Assembly (NCBI GenBank): GCA_020051175.1
Contig: JAGVJJ010000011.1
Coordinates: forward strand, 80,257-144,256
Source: Bacteroidia bacterium
GTDB taxonomy: Bacteria > Bacteroidota > Bacteroidia > 2-12-FULL-35-15
Direction: 5' to 3'
DNA length: 64,000 nt
How positions within the stretch are numbered: position 1 is the first letter of the stretch; each line of letters opens with the position of its first letter. A model generated the notes under the pieces. The model searched no databases. It saw only the letters and a list, made by a program, of their open reading frames with translations, and was not told where the DNA came from. The translations under genes and the position numbers were made by a program. This document shows, piece by piece, positions 3,759-50,682 of this stretch.

Positions 3759-4670
3759 TTATGCTGCTTTTGCTGTGTTTAATTTTTCGGTAGCAATAGG
3801 ACTTTGATAATTTACTTCGTGATACCGGATAAGTTCACTAATGAGTTTTACAACCACTTCATTTCGGGTTTTATAGATCAGCTTACCGTAGAAATCCCGC
3901 TCCATCATCATTCTGCGGATCATTCCGTTTTCCTCTGTGTCTAAGTATTTTTTGCAGGCCCGTATATAGGCTTGCACACTGCATCCCCGGAGCTTCAGCT
4001 TACGCATGTTCACGTAAACAAAAAACCGGATGTTACCAATGAGATATTGTTCTTCAACAATGATCGTTGCAATACGGACCAGGAAGTAGTTTGGAATCCG
4101 GTTACGATACCGAGTAACATCATCCACCTGTTTGTGCAGGCGTAACCAGGTACAGTTCTGAAATTCGGTTGTAGTGATCTTCGCAATGGACTGGTGTGAG
4201 ATCATAATATCCAATCCATGATGACGGTTAGTGGTAAGCAATCCAACAATGGTTTGCCCTTTTGCACCTGTCATGTATTTGTCCAGGTCTTCCAGCACCA
4301 GCAGGCCATCAACAAACTGTTTCACCATGCGCTCTACCATATCTCGCTTTTCTTCAATGGACATGGTTTCACCACAGCGGGTGAGCGGACGTATTCTCCT
4401 TGCACGGATCTGCTTTAAATCACGGATGTATTCGGGATCAACGGTGATGTAACATTCGTAATCATCATCGTTCACATCGAAAATTAAAACCTTGCGGCCT
4501 TTCCTGCCAATGGCAGGCTGATCCCGCATGTAGTTTTCAATTTCTAAAACGTTACGAAAGGTTTTACCAACGCCAGTCTCTCCGCAAACCAGCATGAGCA
4601 TTGGCTGGCGCTCGTCCTGCTTTTGAACGAGAACGATCCCCTGAAATTTTGGCTGTTCTGTTGCTGACAT
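3759..4670 (-). CDS. P-loop NTPase, Zot-like
   Basis: Walker A is LVCGETGVGKTF and Walker B-like is LLVLEDLDKY. 'TTNRHHGLDIMISHQS' resembles the Zot-family RH.G.D motif (from memory). No TM segment seen. Confidence 0.6.
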   Translation of the reverse strand: MSATEQPKFQGIVLVQKQDERQPMLMLVCGETGVGKTFRNVLEIENYMRDQPAIGRKGRKVLIFDVNDDDYECYITVDPEYIRDLKQIRARRIRPLTRCGETMSIEEKRDMVERMVKQFVDGLLVLEDLDKYMTGAKGQTIVGLLTTNRHHGLDIMISHQSIAKITTTEFQNCTWLRLHKQVDDVTRYRNRIPNYFLVRIATIIVEEQYLIGNIRFFVYVNMRKLKLRGCSVQAYIRACKKYLDTEENGMIRRMMMERDFYGKLIYKTRNEVVVKLISELIRYHEVNYQSPIATEKLNTAKAA

Positions 4671-18204: not shown

Positions 18205-18509
18205 TTCTTATAGGGCATTTAAAAAAATGCTTCTATAAGGGCTTTTGTTTTTAGCTCTTAATAAATGTTTGTTTTCACCGGCTCTTAAGGACTTGAAAAA
18301 AAATTCCTCTTTAAAGGCTTTTAAATTCCGCTCTTATAGGGCTTCATTTTTACCGGCTCTTAAGGCACGAAAAAAAAATCTCTTTAAAGACTTTTTATTT
18401 GCGGCTTTTATAGGGCTTTATTTTTTGCTCTTATAGGAGCTTTAAAACTTTTCTTGTATAGGACATTCAAAACTTTTGTCCTAAAGGATTTTAAAACTTT
18501 TATAAGAAC
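18205..18509. repeat. Iteron-like array: 13 degenerate units of a CTCTTAWAGGRC-type core spaced 23-27 bp, with A-tracts between units
   Basis: Cores start at 18205, 18230, 18254, 18281, 18307, 18331, 18356, 18380, 18404, 18427, 18451, 18478 and 18497. Units 4-6 and 7-9 form a 75-bp higher-order duplication. Confidence 0.7.
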
Positions 18510-39920: not shown

Positions 39921-39928
39921 TATATTTG
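39921..39928 (+). promoter_or_regulatory. Candidate -7 promoter box (TATATTTG) for the pyrimidine operon
   Basis: Matches TAnnTTTG, 39 nt upstream of the mmsA ATG. Confidence 0.3.
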
Positions 39929-39966: not shown

Positions 39967-41433
39967 ATGAACTCAGTAGCTCAGTTTCCGGAAGTTAAAA
40001 ATTACATCAATGGCTCATTCGAAAAAAATGGCAATAGCCATATAGATGTATTGTCTCCTTTGGATGGTAAATCTATTTCCAAAGTTCCTATGTCGACATA
40101 CAGTGATTTGGATAAAGCTGTTGCTGCAGCAAAAAAAGCATTTCCTGCATGGTCTGCATTGACACTGAAAGAACGTGTTCAAATATTTTTCAGATACCGT
40201 CAGCTGTTAGAAAAAAACAGGCAGGAATTGGCTGAACTGGTACACATTGAAAATGGAAAAACAATTGAGGAAGCATATGCTGAAGTAGATAAGAGTATTG
40301 AACTGTGTGAGTTTGCAGTTTCCTTGCCTCAGATTGTAAGCAATGAAGTACAGGAAGTAAGCCGTGGAGTTGAATGCAGGATAGAGAAAAAGCCTTTGGG
40401 AGTGGTTGCATCCATCGCACCTTTCAATTTCCCGAACATGGTGCCGCACTGGACCATGCCTAATGCCATCGCTTTAGGAAACACCATGATTTTAAAACCA
40501 TCTGAAATAGTGCCATTAAGTGCAGTACGTATGGCTGAGCTGCTAAAAGAAGCCGGTTTGCCGGATGGCGTGTTTAACGTTGTGAATGGCGGAAAAGAAA
40601 TTGTAGAAGCTATTTGCGATCATCCGGGCATAGAAGCTGTATCGTTTGTAGGTTCTACCAAAGTAGCTAAACTGGTTTATCAGCGTGCTACTCATAACTT
40701 AAAACGATGCGTTGCCCTGGGTGGCGCCAAAAATCACCTGATTGTATTACCGGATGCTCATCTGGAAATGACTGCCTCTAACGTGGTTGCATCCATGAGC
40801 GGTTGTGCCGGACAACGTTGCATGGCCGCAGCAGTAATGGTTGGCGTTGACAAGGTTCAGCACATCATTGATAAAATGTGTGAAGAAGCACGTAAAATTG
40901 TTCCGGGGAAAAACCTCGGTTCCGTCATCAGCAAAGAAGCTAAAGAACGTATTGAACGCTACATCACCGAAGCGGAACAAGCTGGTGCTAAAGTCCTTGT
41001 AGACGGACGAGGAGCTGTTGTTCCTGGCCATGAAAATGGTTTTTACGTTGGGCCTACAGTAATTGACTTTGTAACACCAGATATGAAAATCGCTAAGGAA
41101 GAAGTATTCGGACCGGTTATATCCATTGTAAGGGCCAAAGACCTCAACGAAGCTATTGAAATCGAAAACAGCTCAGCGTATGGCAATGCTGCTGCGGTAT
41201 TTACCCAAAGCGGTGGTTTGGCAAAACAAGTGATAGAGCGCGCAAGTGCTGGAATGATTGGTGTTAATGTTGGCGTACCTGTTCCTCGTGAGCCATTCTC
41301 TTTCGGTGGCTGGAACGAGTCTAAATTTGGCACTTGTGATATTACAGGAAAAAGCTCTATCGAATTTTTTACACAGAATAAAAAAACAACTGTGAAGTGG
41401 AATGCGGAGGCGAAAACGAATTGGATGAGTTAA
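39967..41433 (+). CDS. mmsA: CoA-acylating methylmalonate/malonate-semialdehyde dehydrogenase
   Basis: A 488-aa ALDH with the catalytic-Cys context GCAGQRCMAA. Confidence 0.85.
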   Translation: MNSVAQFPEVKNYINGSFEKNGNSHIDVLSPLDGKSISKVPMSTYSDLDKAVAAAKKAFPAWSALTLKERVQIFFRYRQLLEKNRQELAELVHIENGKTIEEAYAEVDKSIELCEFAVSLPQIVSNEVQEVSRGVECRIEKKPLGVVASIAPFNFPNMVPHWTMPNAIALGNTMILKPSEIVPLSAVRMAELLKEAGLPDGVFNVVNGGKEIVEAICDHPGIEAVSFVGSTKVAKLVYQRATHNLKRCVALGGAKNHLIVLPDAHLEMTASNVVASMSGCAGQRCMAAAVMVGVDKVQHIIDKMCEEARKIVPGKNLGSVISKEAKERIERYITEAEQAGAKVLVDGRGAVVPGHENGFYVGPTVIDFVTPDMKIAKEEVFGPVISIVRAKDLNEAIEIENSSAYGNAAAVFTQSGGLAKQVIERASAGMIGVNVGVPVPREPFSFGGWNESKFGTCDITGKSSIEFFTQNKKTTVKWNAEAKTNWMS

Positions 41434-41474
41434 TTAGTTATTGGTTATCTGTTATTAGTTATCTGTTATTAGTT
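41434..41474. repeat. GTTAT-type heptad array (left arm of a hairpin enclosing the four-helix-bundle gene)
   Basis: Sequence ttagttattggttatctgttattagttatctgttattagtt starts directly after the mmsA stop. Confidence 0.8.
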
Positions 41475-41480
41475 TTATGA

Positions 41481-41918
41481 ATGAGCAGTATAAAATCCTT
41501 TGAAGATTTGGAGTGTTGGAAGGCAGCAAGAGATGTCCGAATTTTTATTTCGAAAATTATAGCAAAACTTCCTCTTCAGGAAAAATACGATTTGATTGAT
41601 AATATGCGAAGAGCATCCCGCTCCTGCACTAGAAATATTGCCGAAGGATTCGGAAGATTCCATTATCAGGAAAACATTCAATTTTGCCGTATTTCAAGGG
41701 GTTCGATGACAGAACTGATTGATGATTTGATAACTTGCACCGATGAAAAATACATTTCCACAGAACAACTTTTAACTGGCAGACAGACGATTCAGAAGGC
41801 GATGGCACTATTAAATGGTTATATTACATATTTAGATAAGGCTAAATCAAGTTATCCTAAAAGTGTTTCAGAACCTGAAACGGACTATAATAGTTCTACT
41901 GACCAAAATAACAGATAA
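41481..41918 (+). CDS. Four-helix-bundle protein (23S rRNA intervening-sequence protein / Avd family)
   Basis: Family hallmarks FEDLECWKAARDV...RSCTRNIAEGFGR...SRGSMTEL are present; 145 aa. Confidence 0.85.
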   Translation: MSSIKSFEDLECWKAARDVRIFISKIIAKLPLQEKYDLIDNMRRASRSCTRNIAEGFGRFHYQENIQFCRISRGSMTELIDDLITCTDEKYISTEQLLTGRQTIQKAMALLNGYITYLDKAKSSYPKSVSEPETDYNSSTDQNNR

Positions 41919-41978
41919 CGGATAACAGATAACAGATAACGGATAACAGATAACGGATAACAGATAACAAATAACGGA
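41907..41978. repeat. ATAAC-type heptad array (right arm), ~10 units of RGATAAC
   Basis: Sequence aaataacagataacggataacagataacagataacggataac... contains the 4HB stop codon and ends 5 nt before the transaminase ATG. Confidence 0.8.
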
Positions 41979-41983
41979 TATAC

Positions 41984-43336
41984 ATGGAAACCAAAATATC
42001 AACTGCAGAACGCGAAGAAATAATTAAAAACAATTTAGAATACACATTGTTCTCCTGGAGCAAACAGGCAGGTTTAAGCCCAATAGCGGTAGAGCGTGCG
42101 GAAGGTGTATATGTTTATGACTATGATGGAAAGCGTTATATTGATTTTTCTTCCCAGTTAATGAATGTAAACATCGGCCATGGTGATAAACGTGTGCGCG
42201 ATGCGGTTGCAAAACAAATGGATGAAGTGAGTTATGTGTATCCGGGTATGGTTACAAAAGCACGTGGGGAGCTCGGAAAAAAATTAGCAGAAATAACACC
42301 GGGCATGAAAAAGGCATTCTTTACGCTTGGTGGTGCTGAAGCTATTGAAAATGCCATTAAAGCTGCCAGAGTTTTTACGGGGCGACACAAAATCATTACG
42401 CAATACCAATCATTTCACGGTGCTTCATATGGGGCATTCTCTGCCGGTGGTGACCCGCGCAGGCATTTGGTAGACGGACAAGCTGCACCGAATTTCATTC
42501 ATGTTGAAAATCCTTATTTCTACCGCTGCCCTTGGAATTCAAAAACATGGGAAGAATGCGCAGACAATTGTGCTGCACACGTAGAACGCGTTATAAAATA
42601 TGAAAACCCGGAAAGCATTGCCGCTATTATATTTGAAGGTGAGTCAGGTTCTTCAGGATGTATAAAATATCCTCCTACTTACTGGAAAAAAATACGCGCC
42701 ATCTGCGATAAGTATGGTATCCTGCTTGTTGCAGATGAAGTAATGAGCGGCTTTGGACGCACCGGAAAAATGTTTGCTTATGAGCATCACGGTGTTCAGG
42801 TGGATATGGTGACTATGGCAAAAGGTTTAACTGCCGGATACCTGCCTTTGGGCGCACTGATGGTATCCGAAAAAATTGCAAAATTCTTTGATGAAAAGCC
42901 ATTACCACTGGGCCTCACCTACTCTGCACATGCAGTAGCCTGTGCTTCCGCACTGGCTGTACTTGACATTTACAAAACTGACAAGTTGGTTGAAAACGCA
43001 GCGGCAATGGGTAAATACATTGACGCACGTGTGGAAGAACTGAAGAAGAAACATCCGTCTATTGGTGATTTCCGAAATACCGGGTTATTAGGCTGTATTG
43101 AGCTTGTAAAAAACCGAGCTACTAAAGAGCCTATGGCACCATGGAACGCAAAACCAGCCGAAATGGAGATAATGAACAAGGTTGCTGCCAAAGTAAAAGA
43201 GCTTGGTATGTTCACTTTCATCCGCTGGAACTGGATCTTCATCGCTCCACCTCTAAACATTACAAAAGCGCAGGTAGATGAGGGCTTGGAAATTATTTCA
43301 AAAGCAATCACCATTGCGGATGAGTATGTTAGTTAG
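41984..43336 (+). CDS. Class-III (omega) aminotransferase, probable beta-alanine/beta-aminoisobutyrate:pyruvate transaminase
   Basis: Motifs VADEVMSGFGRTG and MAKGLTAGYLPLG (PLP-binding Lys). Substrate assignment is from operon context. Confidence 0.8.
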   Translation: METKISTAEREEIIKNNLEYTLFSWSKQAGLSPIAVERAEGVYVYDYDGKRYIDFSSQLMNVNIGHGDKRVRDAVAKQMDEVSYVYPGMVTKARGELGKKLAEITPGMKKAFFTLGGAEAIENAIKAARVFTGRHKIITQYQSFHGASYGAFSAGGDPRRHLVDGQAAPNFIHVENPYFYRCPWNSKTWEECADNCAAHVERVIKYENPESIAAIIFEGESGSSGCIKYPPTYWKKIRAICDKYGILLVADEVMSGFGRTGKMFAYEHHGVQVDMVTMAKGLTAGYLPLGALMVSEKIAKFFDEKPLPLGLTYSAHAVACASALAVLDIYKTDKLVENAAAMGKYIDARVEELKKKHPSIGDFRNTGLLGCIELVKNRATKEPMAPWNAKPAEMEIMNKVAAKVKELGMFTFIRWNWIFIAPPLNITKAQVDEGLEIISKAITIADEYVS

Positions 43337-43484
43337 TTATTAAATTATTCGTTATCTGCTATTTGTTACCAATTAATATCGAATAAATCCAATAGGTAAT
43401 AGACAACAAATAGCTGACAGCGAATAACATTTAACCTGCAATTCAACAATTGAAACAGATAACCGATAACAGATAACGAATAAC
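43328..43484. repeat. Spacer hairpin: GTTAT arm (43328-43370) plus ATAAC arm (43421-43484)
   Basis: A perfect 14-nt complement pairs ttattcgttatctg (43345-43358) with cagataacgaataa (43470-43483). Confidence 0.75.
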
Positions 43485-44942
43485 TTGTCAATAGATAACA
43501 ACATAAAATCCTCCTCCCTTTACAGCGAAGACCTTGCCCCAATTGAGCAATCCAAGCGCAGCTGGAACACGTGGAATTATGCTGCTTTGTGGATAAGCAT
43601 GAGCTTGTGCATTCCAACCTACATGCTTGCCAGCTCATTAATTGATGGCGGTATGAACTGGTGGCAGGCGATACTTACCATATTCCTCGGAAATACTGTT
43701 GTGCTTGTACCCATGATTTTGAACGGACATGCTGGAGCGAAATATGGTATTCCATTTCCGGTATTTGCAAGAGCAAGCTTTGGGGTGAAAGGCGCCAACT
43801 TACCTGCAGTGCTTAGGGCCATTGTTGCTTGTGGTTGGTTTGGTATTCAAACCTGGATAGGAGGTTATGCATTATATCAGCTTTTCAAAGTATGGTATCC
43901 CGCGATAGAAAGTATCCCGGATATATTTCCTGCTTCGTGGGAACTAAAAACCGGGCCGGCAATCACCTTTATTTTGTTCTGGTTGCTCAATATGTACATT
44001 GTTTATCTGGGAGTCGACAGCATAAAAAAATTATTGGTCTTCAAAGCGTTTTTTCTTCCTTTAGCAGCTTTGGCTTTGTTGTTTTGGGCTATCTCAGCTA
44101 GCGATGGCGGTTTGGGCACTATTCTGGCTCAACCCTCAAAATTTGCTACCAACGCAGATTTCTGGGCCTACTTCTTTCCCGGGCTCACAGGTATGGTTGG
44201 CTTTTGGGCAACACTCTCCCTTAATATTCCAGACTTTACACGATATGCCGTAAGCCAGCGCGCACAGGTACTTGGGCAAACCATTGCATTGCCTCCTTCC
44301 ATGACTTTATTCGCATTTATAGGTGTGGTTGTAACTTCAGCTACCACCATAATCTTTGGAACCACTATTTGGGATCCTTTGGTACTGGCCGGAAAGTTCG
44401 ATAGCAAAGTATTGGTTTCCATTGCTATGATTGCTGTTGCAATCTCAACCCTGGCAACCAATATTGCCGCTAATATCGTAAGTCCCGCCAACGACTTTGC
44501 AAATCTCGCTCCTTCAAAAATAAGCTTTAAAACAGGAGGCTATATAACAGGAATAATCGGTGTTCTTATTTTTCCATGGAAGCTGATTGCTGATCCAACA
44601 GGTTATATTTTCACGTGGCTGATAGCCTATTCGGGCCTTCTGGGCCCAGTAGGAGGAATCATGATTGCCGACTACTTCTTTATACGCTCCAAAGAGCTTA
44701 AGCTTGAACATCTCTATAAAGAAAAAGGAGAATATACTTATACCAATGGATTCAATTCCGCTGCAATCATTGCGTTGGTACTTGGTATTTTACCCAATAT
44801 CCCTGGCTTCCTGACAACTACAAACGTCATTGATAAAACAACTGTGTGGTCGTGGTTATCTCATTTATATAACTATGCCTGGTTCGTTGGGTTTATTGTT
44901 TCCGGGTTGGTTTATTGGTTCTTAATGAAAACTAAAAAATAA
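43485..44942 (+). CDS. NCS1-family nucleobase:cation symporter
   Basis: A 12-TM pattern with the N-terminal RSWNTWNYAALWISM. The TTG start is taken from the ORF track. Confidence 0.8.
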   Translation: MSIDNNIKSSSLYSEDLAPIEQSKRSWNTWNYAALWISMSLCIPTYMLASSLIDGGMNWWQAILTIFLGNTVVLVPMILNGHAGAKYGIPFPVFARASFGVKGANLPAVLRAIVACGWFGIQTWIGGYALYQLFKVWYPAIESIPDIFPASWELKTGPAITFILFWLLNMYIVYLGVDSIKKLLVFKAFFLPLAALALLFWAISASDGGLGTILAQPSKFATNADFWAYFFPGLTGMVGFWATLSLNIPDFTRYAVSQRAQVLGQTIALPPSMTLFAFIGVVVTSATTIIFGTTIWDPLVLAGKFDSKVLVSIAMIAVAISTLATNIAANIVSPANDFANLAPSKISFKTGGYITGIIGVLIFPWKLIADPTGYIFTWLIAYSGLLGPVGGIMIADYFFIRSKELKLEHLYKEKGEYTYTNGFNSAAIIALVLGILPNIPGFLTTTNVIDKTTVWSWLSHLYNYAWFVGFIVSGLVYWFLMKTKK

Positions 44943-44951
44943 AAATCAATT

Positions 44952-46331
44952 ATGTCGATACTTATTAAAAACGGACACATTGTTACTGCTTCCGAAGATT
45001 TCAAGGCAGATATTTATGTAGAAGGTGAAAAAATTGTTGCCATAGGTAAGGACCTGAAATACGATGCACAAAAAGTGATTGATGCATCCGGAAAGCTTGT
45101 TTTTCCCGGAGGTATTGACCCTCATGTTCACCTGGATATGCCATTCATGGGAACATCCTCCAGCGATGATTATGAAACGGGAACACGCGCGGCTTTACAC
45201 GGTGGCACCACAATGGTAATTGACTTTATTCTACAAACACAAGGTGATACTTTATACAACGCGTTGCGTGCCTGGCAAAAACGCTCGGAGAAAGCAATTG
45301 GTGACTATTCCTACCACATGGCTGTTACTGACTTTAATGACAACACTGCCAAAGAAGTAGTTGAACTGATAGAAAAAGAAGGCATCACGTCCTTTAAAAC
45401 ATTTATGGCGTACAAAGGTGCATTGATGATTGACGATGGACAAATGGTCCAGTTGATGCGTACTCTGAAGAAGCATGGTGGACTTATCACTGTTCACGCT
45501 ACCAATGGTGATATGATCGACTCACTTATTTCAATGCACAGGAAAGAAGGAAAATTATCACCATTATACCACTATTTGTCACAACCCGAAATAACGGAAG
45601 CTGAAGCATCTGAACGCTTTTCAGATATGCTGTATTACACAGGCTGTCCCGGCTACATTGTACACATGACCTGTGAAGGTGCGCTAAATGCGGTTCGCAG
45701 GGCATCTACCCGCAATCAGAAAGTGTTTGTTGAAACCTGTTCGCAATACTTAATGCTGGATGCATCTTTATATGAAAAAGGATTCGAGGGTGCAAAATGG
45801 GTAATGAGCCCTCCCTTACGCGAAAAGAAAGACCAAACGGCCTTGTGGAGTGGTATCAACCAGGGATTGGTTCAGGTGGTTGGAACCGACCATTGTCCGT
45901 TTATGTGGGAGCAAAAGAAAATGGGTGAAAACGATTTTTCAAAAATTCCTAACGGACACCCAGCCATCGAACACCGCATGGAATTTGTGTTTTCAGAAGG
46001 TGTTGCAAAAGGAAAAATTTCACTTTCAAAATTTGTTGAGGTTACATCCACCAACGCTGCAAAAATATTCGGTATGTATCCGCGTAAAGGTACTTTGTCT
46101 ATTGGAGCTGATGCCGACATTGTAGTATTTGACCCAAATAAAAAACATATTATATCCGTTAAAACACACCACATGAATGTGGACTACTCGGCCTACGAAG
46201 GTTGGGAAGTAACAGGTAAATGTGAAACCGTACTGCTACGCGGACAAGTTGCAATTGAAAATGAAAAATGCCTGCTCACAAAGGGCAACGGAAAATTCAT
46301 TCCAAGAAATAAAATATCTGGCATTATTTGA
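44952..46331 (+). CDS. Dihydropyrimidinase (D-hydantoinase)
   Basis: Metal-binding motif GGIDPHVHLDMPF; 459 aa. Confidence 0.9.
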   Translation: MSILIKNGHIVTASEDFKADIYVEGEKIVAIGKDLKYDAQKVIDASGKLVFPGGIDPHVHLDMPFMGTSSSDDYETGTRAALHGGTTMVIDFILQTQGDTLYNALRAWQKRSEKAIGDYSYHMAVTDFNDNTAKEVVELIEKEGITSFKTFMAYKGALMIDDGQMVQLMRTLKKHGGLITVHATNGDMIDSLISMHRKEGKLSPLYHYLSQPEITEAEASERFSDMLYYTGCPGYIVHMTCEGALNAVRRASTRNQKVFVETCSQYLMLDASLYEKGFEGAKWVMSPPLREKKDQTALWSGINQGLVQVVGTDHCPFMWEQKKMGENDFSKIPNGHPAIEHRMEFVFSEGVAKGKISLSKFVEVTSTNAAKIFGMYPRKGTLSIGADADIVVFDPNKKHIISVKTHHMNVDYSAYEGWEVTGKCETVLLRGQVAIENEKCLLTKGNGKFIPRNKISGII

Positions 46332-46426
46332 AATAACCTGGAGCATACACAGCACGAATAACAGATAAACAATAACCTAATAACCAATAACTGTTAACTA
46401 TTAACTATTAACTAATAACTATTAAA
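46332..46426. repeat. ATAAC/TTAAC heptad array, single orientation
   Basis: Sequence aaataacc...cgaataacagataaacaataacctaataaccaataactgttaactattaactattaactaataactatt fills the whole spacer. Confidence 0.7.
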
Positions 46427-46428
46427 CC

Positions 46429-47295
46429 ATGCCAAGAATCATTAAATCAGGACTAATCCAAATGAGCCTTCCGAAAACAGAAGGAGAAGGAACTATACAG
46501 GAAATATGCGATGCAATGGTGCAAAAGCACATTCCATTCATTGAAGAAGCAGGAAAAAAAGGCGTTCAGATACTTTGTTTACAGGAAATTTTCAATACCC
46601 CATATTTCTGCCCGGGACAGGACAAAAAATGGTACGCCTCCGCAGAATCAGTTCCAGGGCCTACTACAGACCTGATGGCTACTTATGCAAAAAAATACAA
46701 TATGGTAATTATTGTTCCTATTTATGAAAAAGAACAATCAGGTGTTTTATACAATACAGCTGCAGTAATTGATGCAGACGGGACCTACCTTGGAAAATAC
46801 CGCAAAAATCACATCCCTCACACTTCAGGTTTCTGGGAAAAATTCTTTTTCAAACCAGGCAATTTAGGTTACCCGGTTTTCCAGACAAAATACGCAAAAG
46901 TAGGAGTTTACATTTGTTATGATCGCCACTTCCCCGATGGAGCGAGAGCTTTAGGACTTAATGGTGCAGAGATTGTTTACAACCCATCGGCAACCGTTGC
47001 TGGCTTATCGCAATATTTATGGAAGCTGGAACAACCTGCACACGCTGCAGCTAACGGAAATTTCTGGGGATGCATCAACCGTGTAGGTGAAGAAAAACCG
47101 TGGAACTTAGGTAAGTTTTATGGTAACTCCTATTTTGTTGATCCTCGCGGACAAATTTTTGCATGTGCATCCGAAGATAAAGATGAGTTGTTAATTGCTG
47201 AATTCGATCTGGACATGATCGATGAAGTAAGAAGCACCTGGCAGTTTTTCCGCGACCGCAGACCGGAAACGTATGGTGTGCTTACGGAGTTGTAG
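46429..47295 (+). CDS. Carbon-nitrogen hydrolase (nitrilase superfamily), probable beta-ureidopropionase
   Basis: Catalytic-Cys context is VYICYDRHFPDGAR. Function is assigned from operon context. Confidence 0.75.
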   Translation: MPRIIKSGLIQMSLPKTEGEGTIQEICDAMVQKHIPFIEEAGKKGVQILCLQEIFNTPYFCPGQDKKWYASAESVPGPTTDLMATYAKKYNMVIIVPIYEKEQSGVLYNTAAVIDADGTYLGKYRKNHIPHTSGFWEKFFFKPGNLGYPVFQTKYAKVGVYICYDRHFPDGARALGLNGAEIVYNPSATVAGLSQYLWKLEQPAHAAANGNFWGCINRVGEEKPWNLGKFYGNSYFVDPRGQIFACASEDKDELLIAEFDLDMIDEVRSTWQFFRDRRPETYGVLTEL

Positions 47296-47301
47296 AGATG
47301 T

Positions 47302-47448
47302 TGGTAGTTATCGGTTATTTGTTATAGGTTATTTGTTATTTCTGTAATTCATTGTCAATTAACCCATAACTGATAACAATAACTGATAACTGTTAACCAA
47401 TAACTGATAACCATTAATAAATAACCCAATAACAGATAACTAAATAAA
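47302..47448. repeat. Spacer hairpin: GTTAT arm (47302-47343) plus ATAAC arm (47363-47448)
   Basis: tagttatcggttatt (47305-47319) pairs with aataacagataacta (47428-47442) at 14 of 15 positions. Confidence 0.75.
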
Positions 47449-47450
47449 CA

Positions 47451-48770
47451 ATGGCCGAATACAAAAGACCCTCTTCCGAACTGGAATTTGAAGCAAATTT
47501 CGCTCAGAAGAAACCCTTGATGAACAGCACTGAAGCGTATTACGAAAGCTCACGCTGTTTATTTTGCTACGATGCGCCCTGCATGAATGCTTGTCCTACA
47601 CATATTGATATTCCGTTATTTATCAAACAAATTCATACAGGAAATGTGGAAGGCGCTGCAAAAACCATTTACGATTCCAACTGGATGGGAAATGCATGTG
47701 CAAAGGTTTGCCCTACGGGAGTTTTATGTGAAGGAGCCTGCGTGTATAACAACCAGCATGTGAAACCGATTGAAATTGGGCGTTTGCAGAACTACGCTAC
47801 ATTGGCAGCCATCAAACAAAATAAAAAAATTGCGGAACCAGGTGTTCCCAATGGTAAAAAAGTAGCTATTATCGGTGCCGGACCAGCGGGCTTATCTGCG
47901 GCCTGTGAACTGCGAACATTGGGATATATGGTAGATGTTTTTGAAGCAAAAGCCAAACCAACCGGACTTACGGTATACGGTGTAGCGCCTTACAAAATCA
48001 ATAATGAAGAGGCATTGCAGGAAGAAGAATATTTACAAAAACAATTGGGTTATAATGTATTTTATAACAAGCCAATTAATACATCTGAGCAGCTAAAAGA
48101 AATAGAATCGTCATACGATGCTGTATTCTTAGGCGTTGGTCTTGGAACTACCGCTTCGCTTGGGATTCCGGGCGAAGATGGAAGCAATGTTATCGGGGCA
48201 GTGGAGTTCATTGAGGATTTGCGTATGAAACATCATACGATAAAAATTCCTTCAAGAGTTGTAGTTATCGGAGGTGGAAATACCGCCATGGATGCAGCTT
48301 CTGAAAGTGCAAGAATGGGTGCAGAAAAAGTAACTCTTGCATACAGACGTGATAAAGCAGGAATGGGTGCCTACAAATTTGAATACGACCTTGCCCTGAG
48401 TGCAGGAGTTACAAGCCTTTTCAACGCCTCACCAGTTGAAATAACTGCGCAGGGAGTAAAATTTATCAGAACACAGGAAGTGAACGGCAAGCTTGAAAAC
48501 ATTGCAGGCAGTGAGTTTACACTTGAATGCGACCTTGTTATAAAAGCAACCGGACAAGCTAAAATGGGTTCACTGTTAAAACAAATTAGTGGAGTACAGT
48601 TGGACAAAAGCAACCGCATTGTTGTAAATATGGAAACCTATCAGACCGGCAATCCAAAATATTTTGCAGGAGGCGATGCCGTAAATGGCGGAGCTGAAGT
48701 GGTAAACGGAGCCTATGAAGGAAAAATGGCTGCGAAAGGAATAGATAAATGGCTGAAGACTGGTAAATAG
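47451..48770 (+). CDS. preT: NAD-dependent dihydropyrimidine dehydrogenase, PreT-like subunit
   Basis: Fe-S motif CLFCYDAPCMNACP and dinucleotide fold VAIIGAGPAGLSAA. Confidence 0.85.
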   Translation: MAEYKRPSSELEFEANFAQKKPLMNSTEAYYESSRCLFCYDAPCMNACPTHIDIPLFIKQIHTGNVEGAAKTIYDSNWMGNACAKVCPTGVLCEGACVYNNQHVKPIEIGRLQNYATLAAIKQNKKIAEPGVPNGKKVAIIGAGPAGLSAACELRTLGYMVDVFEAKAKPTGLTVYGVAPYKINNEEALQEEEYLQKQLGYNVFYNKPINTSEQLKEIESSYDAVFLGVGLGTTASLGIPGEDGSNVIGAVEFIEDLRMKHHTIKIPSRVVVIGGGNTAMDAASESARMGAEKVTLAYRRDKAGMGAYKFEYDLALSAGVTSLFNASPVEITAQGVKFIRTQEVNGKLENIAGSEFTLECDLVIKATGQAKMGSLLKQISGVQLDKSNRIVVNMETYQTGNPKYFAGGDAVNGGAEVVNGAYEGKMAAKGIDKWLKTGK

Positions 48771-48960
48771 TTATTGAGTTATCAGTTATCAGTTATTCGT
48801 TATTGAGGGATAGCTAAAGAATAAATAAATTCAATAACCCACCAAATAACTAATAACCCAATAACAGATAACCAATAACCAATAACAGATAACCATTAAC
48901 CCATTAACCCATTAACCCAATAACCAATAACCGATAACCTAATAACTCAATAACGAATAA
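48768..48960. repeat. Spacer hairpin: GTTAT arm (48768-48814) plus long ATAAC/TTAAC arm (48831-48960)
   Basis: A perfect 15-nt complement pairs ttattcgttattgag (48793-48807) with ctcaataacgaataa (48946-48960). Confidence 0.75.
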
Positions 48961-48964
48961 GAAA

Positions 48965-50305
48965 ATGGACTTATCAATAAATTTCGCAGGAATAAAATCT
49001 CCAAACCCTTTCTGGCTGGCTTCCGCACCTCCAACCAATTCAGGCTACCAGATCATGAAAGCCTTTGATGCTGGCTGGGGCGGTGCTGTATGGAAAACAT
49101 TGGGTGTTCCTGTAGTGAATGTTTCCAGCCGTTACGGTTCTGTTAATTACCGGAACACACGTATGGCAGGCTTTAATAACATTGAGCTGATCACCGATCG
49201 TCCTTTAGCCGATAACCTAAGGGAAATAGAAGAAGTAAAAAAATATTTTCCCAATCATGCCGTAATCGCCTCACTCATGGTGGAAACCAAAGAGCAGTGG
49301 CATGCAATTATAAAAGATGTGCAAAATGCAGGAGCCGATGGTATTGAATTAAATTTCGGCTGTCCGCACGGAATGTGCGAAAGAGGCATGGGTTCAGCCG
49401 TAGGCCAGGAGCCGGAAGTATTGCAAACCATTGTAGGCTGGGTAATGGAAGCAGCTAAAATACCTGTAATTACAAAGCTCTCACCTAACATTTCACACAT
49501 TACCGACCCTGGGCTGGCTGCGGTTAAAGGTGGTACAGATGCAATCTCCTTGATCAATACGATTAAAAGTATTGTTGGAATCGACTTGGATACCTATGCT
49601 CCCTATCCTGTAGTAGACGGCAAAGGTAGCAATGGCGGGTATTGCGGACCAGCAGTAAAACCAATTGCGCTGCAAATGCTGCGCGAACTGGCATGCGATA
49701 AAGAAATTAACAAAGTGCCTATCAGCGGTATAGGTGGAATTGAAACATGGAGAGATGTAGTGGAGTTCATTTTGCTTGGCGCAACATCCGTGCAGGTATG
49801 TACAGCTGCCATGCACTATGGCTTTGGAATTGTAAGGGAAATGGAAGCTGGACTTATTCAGTTTATGAAGGATAAAGGCTATACTACTATCTATGATTTT
49901 GCTGGTAAGGCATTGCCAAATGTAACTGAATGGAAACATCTGAACCTGAAGCATAAAGTAGTTGCAAATATAAACCCCGACAAATGTGTTGGTTGTGAGC
50001 TATGTTACATAGCCTGCGATGATGGCGCTCACCAGGCAATCGGCCTCACAGAGGGTAGCAGAGTACCGCATATAATAGAAGAGAATTGTGTGGGCTGTAA
50101 CCTCTGCTCGCTGGTTTGTCCGGTAGAAGGTTGTATTACCATGCAAAAGCGCGATGATGGCACACAACATTTAACCTGGGATGAAAGAACAAAAGCCAAC
50201 AATATTCCTGTAACCTTTAACGATGAACTTGCCGGTGGCCGCCATCACTGGGTTCCGGCACCTGTCGATGCGCTTAAGAACAAGAGGAAGGATATGAGAA
50301 GGTAA
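48965..50305 (+). CDS. preA: NAD-dependent dihydropyrimidine dehydrogenase, PreA-like subunit
   Basis: DHOD-like core ELNFGCPHGM plus two C-terminal 4Fe-4S motifs, CVGCELCYIACDD and CVGCNLCSLVCP. Confidence 0.9.
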   Translation: MDLSINFAGIKSPNPFWLASAPPTNSGYQIMKAFDAGWGGAVWKTLGVPVVNVSSRYGSVNYRNTRMAGFNNIELITDRPLADNLREIEEVKKYFPNHAVIASLMVETKEQWHAIIKDVQNAGADGIELNFGCPHGMCERGMGSAVGQEPEVLQTIVGWVMEAAKIPVITKLSPNISHITDPGLAAVKGGTDAISLINTIKSIVGIDLDTYAPYPVVDGKGSNGGYCGPAVKPIALQMLRELACDKEINKVPISGIGGIETWRDVVEFILLGATSVQVCTAAMHYGFGIVREMEAGLIQFMKDKGYTTIYDFAGKALPNVTEWKHLNLKHKVVANINPDKCVGCELCYIACDDGAHQAIGLTEGSRVPHIIEENCVGCNLCSLVCPVEGCITMQKRDDGTQHLTWDERTKANNIPVTFNDELAGGRHHWVPAPVDALKNKRKDMRR

Positions 50306-50312
50306 TTGCTTA

Positions 50313-50345
50313 AGTTATTGAGTTATCAGTTATTAGTTATTAGAT
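50313..50345. repeat. Terminal GTTAT-type heptad array (no partner arm downstream)
   Basis: Sequence agttattgagttatcagttattagttattagat lies directly after the preA stop. Confidence 0.65.
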
Positions 50346-50600: not shown

Positions 50601-50682
50601 GCCCTCGTGCTGAAACTGGCAGACAGGCTAGACTCAGGATCTAGTGTCGTAAGACGTGGGGGTTCGAATCCCCCCGAGGGCA
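50601..50682 (+). tRNA. tRNA-Leu (anticodon CAG), long variable arm, CCA not encoded
   Basis: Acceptor stem is GCCCTCG/CGAGGGC. The anticodon loop is CT-CAG-GA on stem CTAGA/TCTAG. The T-arm is GGGGG-TTCGAAT-CCCCC and the discriminator is A. Confidence 0.9.

Follow-up and report, generated by a model that had tools for sequence, protein, structure and literature searches.

The 23S rRNA intervening sequence (IVS) of Coxiella has a 28-bp terminal inverted-repeat stem that is cut by RNase III and an S23p open reading frame (ORF) in the loop, which was reported to be decaying and untranslated, and it carries two to three tandem GACAGAT heptamers with strain-variable copy number directly upstream of this ORF (Warrier et al. 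2016, PMC4990558). In Beggiatoaceae, Cyanobacteria and five Bacteroidetes, direct repeats of the heptamer TAACTGA have been described that lie shortly before start codons; these repeats bear stops in all frames, were treated as lacking secondary structure and were noted in reverse orientation only as isolated sets after stop codons, and a binding protein, possibly mobile, was suggested for them (MacGregor 2015, PMC4679880). The window analysed here is a 64-kb stretch of DNA from a Bacteroidia bacterium, in which a four-helix-bundle (4HB) gene of the S23p family (S23p / 23S_rRNA_IVP, PF05635/TIGR02436) was found in the spacer between an mmsA-like aldehyde dehydrogenase (Aldedh) gene and a class-III aminotransferase gene, bracketed by inverted arrays of heptanucleotide repeats. 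The locus is read as a copy of a widespread IVS-like RNA hairpin cassette embedded co-directionally in the spacer of an mRNA operon, with a probability of about 0.55. The elements of the locus are as follows.

39967..41433, + strand: aldehyde dehydrogenase (mmsA-like), the upstream host gene (PF00171 Aldedh, E 1e-139; stop codon 41431-41433)
41434-41436, + strand: 3-nt linker from the mmsA stop to the left array, from the sequence
41437..41479, + strand: left (5') arm of ~6 GTTATNN heptads, beginning 3 nt past the mmsA stop and ending 1 nt short of the 4HB ATG
41481..41918, + strand: 145-aa 4HB gene in the hairpin loop (PF05635 and TIGR02436 profile matches)
41907..41980, + strand: right (3') arm of 10 NNATAAC heptads, longer than the left arm and separated by 3 nt from the aminotransferase ATG
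41984..43336, + strand: class-III aminotransferase, the downstream host gene (PF00202 Aminotran_3, E 3e-94)

The two arrays and the ORF were present at the coordinates given in an earlier note on this DNA, except that the left array has its first base at 41437, not at 41434. The left-arm units are, in order, GTTATTG, GTTATCT, GTTATTA, GTTATCT, GTTATTA and GTTTTAT. Tandem Repeats Finder (TRF) placed the left array at 41437-41474 with a period of 14 (two heptads) and 95% matches and the right array at 41908-41980 with a period of 7 and 10.4 copies, and a motif scan counted 5-6 GTTAT/GTTAW units on the left and 10 ATAAC units on the right. The arms (41437-41479 and 41933-41975) are 84% complementary across 43 nt with several alternative registers according to the repeat finder, and the 15-mers at 41437-41451 and 41961-41975, quoted as a pair in the earlier note, match at 14 of 15 positions when taken directly from the sequence. 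The right array carries a TAA every 7 nt, which gives stops in all three frames, and its first units provide the stop codon of the 4HB gene; this TAA (41916-41918) falls within the repeat unit AACAGATAAC, as had been pointed out before. Folding of 41425-41990 (566 nt) with RNAfold, a check which had been proposed together with shuffled controls, gave -130 kcal/mol compared to -107.7 +/- 5.9 kcal/mol for dinucleotide shuffles (z -3.77), and 0 of 100 shuffles were as good. The arrays were paired with each other in both the minimum free energy and the centroid structures, and in the predicted fold the stem base takes in the mmsA stop codon while ~15 nt before the aminotransferase ATG stay free. 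Arm complementarity and fold together place terminal inverted repeats around an ORF in the loop, as in IVS elements.

As in the 23S IVS of Coxiella, Leptospira and Xanthomonas, a protein of the same family is encoded in the loop of a terminal-inverted-repeat stem that is co-directional in the host transcript, and as in the Coxiella IVS, tandem heptamers adjoin the S23p ORF. The comparison with IVS elements made in the earlier note gained strength from these Coxiella heptamers upstream of the S23p ORF and from the RNase III-cut terminal stem (PMC4990558). Unlike the 23S IVS, the element of the window lies in the transcript of a protein-coding operon and in no rRNA, and its arms are whole heptad arrays abutting stop and start codons; unlike the reportedly decaying Coxiella ORF, the ORF of the window is under purifying selection. 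No rRNA was found with Rfam in 39-52 kb, and the flanks are Aldedh and Aminotran_3 in place of 23S rRNA.

Pairing of the arrays in the polycistronic transcript would create a long imperfect stem with the 4HB cistron in its loop and the mmsA stop codon beside the aminotransferase leader, and such a stem would therefore act as an insulator or processing site. This would be the same topological solution as that of the 23S rRNA IVS excised by RNase III. The stem is probably a double-strand-specific processing site or an insulating site, with which the inserted gene could live in the operon without breaking it. RNase III cleavage is a feature of the Coxiella IVS and may, by analogy, extend to the hairpin of the window; the pairing may matter at the RNA level, and the expression of the neighbouring genes may be affected. 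The longer right arm would leave an A/C-rich leader unpaired ahead of the next start codon and would supply the all-frame stops together with the 4HB stop. An unstructured leader of this kind would be useful because Bacteroidota are largely without Shine-Dalgarno-based initiation.

The cassette form, a 4HB gene bracketed by inverted arrays of the type (GTTAW-NN)n ... (NN-WTAAC)m, recurs across the family. Each GTDB species was represented by one genome in the search for relatives, which returned at least 594; the 80 best loci, which were retained, span Bacteroidota, Ignavibacteriota, Chlorobiota, Desulfobacterota, Verrucomicrobiota, Nitrospirota, Planctomycetota, Calditrichia and one Limnohabitans. 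In most of these loci, GTTAW heptads before the gene and WTAAC heptads after it were evident on plain inspection of the flanks. When genes were scored for at least two GTTAW upstream and at least two WTAAC downstream, both arrays were present at 70% of 64 complete 4HB genes (at least 8 phyla) compared to 1% of 334 control genes, and the reverse polarity (WTAAC upstream, GTTAW downstream) was present at 0% and 2%, respectively. Collapsed to distinct genomic contexts, both arrays were present in 24/43. The median flank duplex z, computed with mononucleotide shuffles, was -2.46 for the 4HB genes and -0.06 for the controls (Mann-Whitney U test, p 7e-16). In addition, 46% of the left heptads had an exact reverse-complement partner in their own locus compared to 21.5 +/- 3.3% when permuted across loci (0/2000), and the arms are complementary beyond the conserved core, at the variable heptad positions too. 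The enrichment of inverted heptads around 4HB genes, which the earlier note had named as a check, was thus found; neither a lack of enrichment nor a fold no more stable than shuffles, two outcomes that the earlier note had listed as refuting, was observed, and the stem with an ORF in its loop inside an mRNA operon, which it had proposed for one locus, holds and is general to most relatives in many phyla.

Geometry and orientation were counted for the 82 4HB ORFs detected in the retained loci. The upstream neighbour was on the same strand in 75/75 cases and the downstream neighbour in 73/76. The left array began at a median of 6 nt past the upstream stop codon and the right array ended at a median of 9 nt short of the downstream start codon. 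In length, the right array exceeded the left in 35 loci and fell short of it in 8. The 4HB stop was the TAA of a repeat unit in 40/82. No terminator-like sites were found in the + strand spacers of the window by a sigma-70 promoter/terminator scan, a type of scan that is uninformative for Bacteroidota. Co-orientation with the neighbours and the lack of a terminator-like site in the spacer support dependence on operon transcription.

The largest single context was sdhA-4HB-sdhB with 24 loci from Flavobacteriia, Cytophagia and Chitinophagia, and the gene-in-hairpin unit was also present in RND (resistance-nodulation-division) efflux and CRISPR-cas operons. In the sdhA-4HB-sdhB loci, sdhA ends with ...RSYK and its stop codon and sdhB starts with MKLTLKIWRQ... 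around the cassette (match ~4001-4380), and several of the carriers are cultured type strains. These loci include L021, L023, L035, L036, L038, L039, L041, L043, L044, L047, L051, L053, L055, L056, L065, L067, L069, L076, L078, L079 and L081. Cultured carriers include Flavobacterium pectinovorum, F. quisquiliarum, Zunongwangia pacifica, Olivibacter domesticus DSM 18733 and Roseivirga thermotolerans (L035, L038, L051, L064 and L066). Distant 4HB relatives (26-40% identical) on cyanobacterial and Riemerella plasmids were likewise wedged co-directionally in operons, e.g. cas6-cas4 and cas10-cmr3, and were flanked by inverted heptads of unrelated sequence, namely GGGTGTR/YACACCC, GTCAGGA/TCCTGAC, GGAGATA/TATCTCC and AGGTTYA/TRAACCT. 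The cas6-4HB-cas4 locus of Pseudanabaena pPg_01 (L137) has inverted heptads with more than 15 AAAGCTA units, and the cas10-4HB-cmr3 cassette of Picosynechococcus (L142) has inverted heptads as well. In three Desulfobacterota loci (L070, L073 and L080), long purine heptads of the GAGGAAA/GAGAATA type stand on both sides of the 4HB gene in direct orientation and an inverted TTTCCTC-type arm follows only ~60 nt further downstream, a more complex architecture.

Short tandemly repeated repetitive (STRR) sequences, the cyanobacterial heptanucleotide repeats reportedly described by Mazel et al. in 1990, are 7-nt units repeated in tandem between the genes of operons, and some of them form hairpins, as in the hupS-hupL spacer. 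The cyanobacterial plasmid 4HB genes examined carry inverted heptads of that kind, while the arrays of the window differ from STRR in phylum and motifs. STRR were not tied to any gene family in the literature searched. The presence of 23S_rRNA_IVP genes within cas loci has been noted (Zhang et al. 2014, PMC3936711), and since the 4HB genes of cas loci look like the intercistronic cassette, their presence there may be insertion rather than CRISPR function.

GxxExxY/PDDEXK_3 genes were a second small family in such spacers, likewise co-directional, and were examined as a control. No flanking heptads were found at these genes, which argues that the heptads are tied to 4HB genes and not to inserted genes generally. 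The GxxExxY genes were flanked by a conserved box, AGAACGCTGATnACGCAGAT, upstream and often by its reverse complement downstream. They were observed at L001 (14806-15313), L143 (1979-2453), L144, L148 and L150, with insertion sites between dihydropyrimidinase and CN-hydrolase, nuoJ and nuoK, His-kinase and LytTR regulator, and DeoC and Aldedh, and an ORF-less copy of the AGAACGCTGATnACGCAGAT box pair was present in the Aldedh-to-aminotransferase spacer of L091 (3398-3500). In loci selected for 4HB genes, 117/135 GTTAW/WTAAC arrays directly flanked a 4HB gene, and the remaining 18 included ORF-less hairpins of the same motif in adjacent spacers, in Desulfobacterota and Verrucomicrobiota too. 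Only one such array was found in 298 kb of orthologous loci without 4HB genes, compared to 18 non-flanking arrays per 531 kb near 4HB genes (~10x).

These counts bear on the explanation that the heptad hairpins are ordinary slippage-made structures that stabilise or insulate mRNA, in whose loops promoterless small genes survive by chance colonisation with no functional tie between protein and repeat. ORF-less heptad hairpins of other motifs do occur in a few orthologous spacers without 4HB genes (L090, L093, L112, L118 and L119), and the heptamer copy number varies by slippage among Coxiella strains (PMC4990558). A 661-aa SprB/PKD/Por-secretion-tail gene of 2 kb also shares the hairpin loop in L001 (7680-10000), between the left arm and the 4HB gene. 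In that locus the left arm stays at the Aldedh stop, with the arms more than 2 kb apart. However, the excess of arrays at 4HB genes over control genes, the 117 of 135 arrays that directly flank a 4HB gene, the lack of heptads at GxxExxY genes in like spacers, and the passage of the GTTAW motif with the 4HB gene into high-GC hosts of other phyla make chance colonisation very unlikely.

The history of the junction was followed in orthologous loci. In L001-L003 the aminotransferase is 92-96% identical to that of the window, and L004 was placed by common genomic context. The 4HB gene was kept at the Aldedh-aminotransferase junction in all four (4/4), with heptad arms that had drifted in sequence. 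At 37 more distant orthologous Aldedh-to-aminotransferase junctions (aminotransferase 60-83% identical) no 4HB gene was present, and the spacers were 10-150 nt long. This comparison, which had been suggested in the earlier note for the mmsA-transaminase spacers, therefore points to an insertion that is confined to one clade and has been retained there since. The dihydropyrimidinase-to-CN-hydrolase spacer had only a right array in the window (46332-46428) and in L002, a second type of 4HB gene in L003 (14786-15295), a window-type 4HB gene in L052 (~3833-4416) and a GxxExxY gene in L001 and L143. This spacer is a recurrent insertion hot spot with fast turnover.

Such a pattern is also what a mobile cassette at the DNA level would produce, in which a small element, non-autonomous or unconventional, has the inverted arrays as its terminal inverted repeats and the 4HB gene as cargo or accessory factor, and the ORF-less hairpins are derivatives comparable to miniature inverted-repeat transposable elements (MITEs) or REPINs. 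This explanation is compatible with the RNA-hairpin reading and is possible, if on balance not the probable one. Besides the absence of the cassette from the 37 distant junctions and the different small genes, or none, held by the dihydropyrimidinase-to-CN-hydrolase spacer among relatives, it draws on proteins 50-72% identical that carry GTTAW arms in Bacteroidota, Ignavibacteriota, Desulfobacterota, Verrucomicrobiota, Nitrospirota and Planctomycetota. Identity to the 4HB protein of the window does not follow taxonomy, with 72% in Ignavibacteria, 62% in Desulfobacterota and 62% in another Bacteroidia metagenome-assembled genome (MAG); an identical protein is annotated in a MAG labelled "Bacteroidia bacterium". 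The GC content of the 4HB ORFs was 34.1% compared to 42.7% for the flanking genes (p 7e-13), and the 4HB GC content tracks that of the host (r 0.77). The ORF-less arrays of the same motif that are ~10x commoner near 4HB genes, and the different inverted box owned by the GxxExxY genes, also fit a mobile element. Its patchy occurrence, its low GC and the similarity of copies from different phyla give mobility of the cassette indirect support.

The formal parallel is the REP/REPIN-RAYT system (REP, repetitive extragenic palindromic), reportedly treated by Bertels and Rainey in 2011, in which one small gene likewise lies between inverted hairpin-forming repeats and ORF-less copies occur in other spacers. 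RAYT is an HUH Y1 transposase, whereas PF05635 was the only domain match in the 4HB protein, with no transposase or recombinase domain, and REP units are palindromes whereas the arms of the window are tandem heptad arrays. No target-site duplication was seen at the cassette. Random insertion would need strong post-insertion filtering to give 0/75 genes opposite to the upstream neighbour. The dN/dS of the 4HB gene against its orthologues was 0.06-0.12 (0.064 for the sole pair with unsaturated dS), and the protein, which is under purifying selection, changes 3-5x faster than the operon enzymes; the copy was kept at one site under this selection past synonymous saturation (dS above 1), which also speaks against a mobile cassette. 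Finally, no 4HB or GxxExxY relatives were found in the IMG/VR viral contigs, which counts against mobility as well, and so phage origin is not supported.

The product of the 4HB ORF matched PF05635 23S_rRNA_IVP with 91.7 bits (cut-off 33.8) and TIGR02436 with 80.7 bits (cut-off 24), and more than 5,000 PF05635/TIGR02436 relatives were returned by one search. The AlphaFold 2 monomer model (pLDDT 82.5) has helices at 7-27, 32-56, 62-88 and 94-124, and disorder is predicted for the last 18 residues. The motif R-x3-S-x3-N-x2-E is conserved, with R44, S48, N52 and E55 invariant in alignment A1, and the leading G of the known family motif GxxRxxxSxxxNxxE (PMC3936711) is N41 in the protein of the window. 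Foldseek matched the model to 2GSC (Xcc0516) with a template-modelling (TM) score of 0.85-0.89 and to 2RLD (BT_0352) with a TM score of 0.82-0.88, and phmmer gave an E of 2e-8 with 2GSC. The match to the Avd structure bAvd 4DWL was weak (E 0.06, TM 0.5-0.7). In structure, the protein is nearer to 2GSC and 2RLD, both stand-alone S23p proteins, than to Avd of diversity-generating retroelements (DGRs). Avd is a nucleic-acid-associated four-helix bundle of the same Pfam clan, and the 4HB protein shares its fold and clan. No reverse transcriptase and no template/variable repeats were found near the 4HB gene, unlike in DGRs, and the neighbours in the operon of the window and in L001-L003 were all metabolic or transport genes. 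Membership in a DGR as an Avd protein was rejected because of the absence of a reverse transcriptase nearby and the weak structural match to 4DWL.

The protein data lead to a further explanation, in which a ring-shaped 4HB pentamer would bind GUUAW/WUAAC at 7-nt spacing in RNA or single-stranded DNA and compete with stem formation, so that the protein would regulate itself and tune the translation of operon genes preceded by the repeats. A comparable case is TRAP, which binds spaced GAG triplets, and Avd relatives bind nucleic acid. A variable 2-nt spacer beside a conserved 5-nt core is what one would expect if a multimer bound the arrays, and purifying selection on the protein agrees with such a role. 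Homopentameric toroids are known in the family (2GSC; Lin 2006, as cited in PMC4990558), and a TAACTGA-binding protein, possibly mobile, was proposed by MacGregor 2015 (PMC4679880). The second 4HB of L003 and a Riemerella 4HB, which are 51% identical, share AACCTTR heptads, and two paralogues in one operon or genome carry different heptads, so that the motif partly tracks the subfamily. However, close homologues 56-68% identical to the protein of the window carry other heptads (AATAA-type in L010, TGATT in L062, CAACG in L033 and GAGGAAA in L070), and both complementary arrays are conserved although binding to one strand needs no such pair. Strict co-variation of protein and motif therefore holds for the AACCTTR subfamily and for within-genome paralogues and fails for close homologues, and recognition of its own heptads by the protein is kept as a doubtful rival and not as the main claim.

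The remaining heptad arrays of the window were found by motif scan in the operon of the cassette only, at 41.4-50.35 kb. This operon consists of seven co-directional genes (39967-50305) encoding Aldedh, Aminotran_3, a cytosine/uracil-type permease, a dihydropyrimidinase-like amidohydrolase, a CN-hydrolase, a PreT-like subunit and a PreA-like subunit, and is a reductive pyrimidine-catabolism operon. Its other features are given below.

39921..39928, + strand: promoter-like -7 box TATATTTG of the Bacteroidota type, which precedes the first gene of the operon by ~40 nt (pattern search, consensus match only)
43337..43486, + strand: ORF-less heptad hairpin in the aminotransferase-to-permease spacer, with left GTTAT-like units after the stop and right ATAAC units (43454-43484) before the start; fold z -4.85
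46357..46425, + strand: ATAAC/TTAAC array directly before the CN-hydrolase ATG (46429), a right arm alone that forms no hairpin; fold z 0.04
47307..47447, + strand: ORF-less heptad hairpin in the CN-hydrolase-to-PreT-like spacer; fold z -4.69
48770..48960, + strand: ORF-less heptad hairpin between the PreT-like and PreA-like genes, with 5 units on the left and ~15 on the right; fold z -7.73
50313..50343, + strand: left-arm-only GTTAT array without partner, after the stop of the last operon gene (50305); fold z -1.2

In each of the three ORF-less spacer hairpins, a GTTAT array follows the stop and, past a short loop, an ATAAC array leads to the start; the stem base is at the stop and start codons in all three, and their z of -4.7 to -7.7 bears out the view of the earlier note that neighbouring spacers form ORF-less hairpins of the same repeat type. 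They may be the same element without cargo. A gap of 3-9 nt separates the right arrays from the ATGs at 41984, 46429, 47451 and 48965, and the repeat ATAACTG x6.7 at 47366-47411 (TRF) is the TAACTGA repeat. No Rfam family matched the hairpins, for which only sub-threshold look-alikes of miRNA precursors were returned. A tRNA gene at 50601-50682 (Rfam 52.5 bits) lies ~300 nt past the last operon gene, and the same tRNA-like sequence comes after the orthologous operon of L002. Elsewhere in the window, 18221-18501 contains tandem repeats whose period is 74 nt (2.7 copies, 77-83% matches), followed by 23-25-nt repeats; these are not related to the heptads.

Several results weigh against an RNA hairpin cassette. 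The energies of sense and antisense duplexes were alike (p 0.37) and G-U pairs were not enriched on the sense strand, so there was no sign that RNA rather than DNA is the selected form; this symmetry suits a DNA-level feature such as a mobile cassette. The stem is A/U-rich and broken every 5 bp, and its susceptibility to RNase III is an assumption. About 30% of the 4HB genes were without clear GTTAW/WTAAC arrays, and within the window one spacer has only a right arm (46357..46425) and the operon end only a left arm (50313..50343). In addition, pairing alone explains neither why the period is invariably 7 nt and the GTTAW core conserved across phyla nor why the 4HB protein is under purifying selection, and for this reason the mobile-unit and ring-protein explanations are kept alive beside the hairpin cassette.

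Among described repeats, the right arms of the window are of the same class as TAACTGA, lying in "forward" orientation a few nucleotides upstream of starts with stops in all frames. Unlike TAACTGA as described, they have a partner arm and a 4HB gene, and the text of MacGregor 2015 (PMC4679880) mentions no partner arm, hairpin or 4HB/S23p gene. The statement of the earlier note that no description of the arrangement was known thus stands for the partner arm and the gene and does not stand for the right-arm repeats alone, which had been described as TAACTGA (PMC4679880). No link of 4HB genes to inverted heptad arrays was found in the literature, with incomplete coverage that left most subscription journals outside, and absence is unproven.

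As a speculative and rather doubtful extension, S23p-type 4HB proteins could be the trans-acting partners of heptanucleotide arrays such as STRR, TAACTGA and the 23S IVS heptamers, with each subfamily binding, maintaining or spreading its own 7-nt-periodic hairpins. The gene with its inverted arrays would then be a self-propagating intercistronic element, similar to REP/RAYT or to TRAP with a non-enzymatic ring protein, that would also modulate the translation of the host operon.

Overall, PF05635/TIGR02436 is a very large family without an assigned function, known outside DGR Avd only from its location in 23S rRNA IVS, and heptanucleotide repeats in several phyla have been unexplained for decades, from STRR (1990) to TAACTGA (2015). 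The 4HB gene with its heptad repeats as one recurring unit joins these two puzzles across pyrimidine catabolism, sdhA-sdhB, RND efflux and CRISPR-cas operons. The arrangement is highly non-random and unites the 23S IVS elements and the TAACTGA/STRR repeats through one gene family, by a mechanism that would, by analogy, be that of the IVS. The cassette layout accounts for 4HB genes turning up as apparent "members" of unrelated operons, e.g. cas loci.

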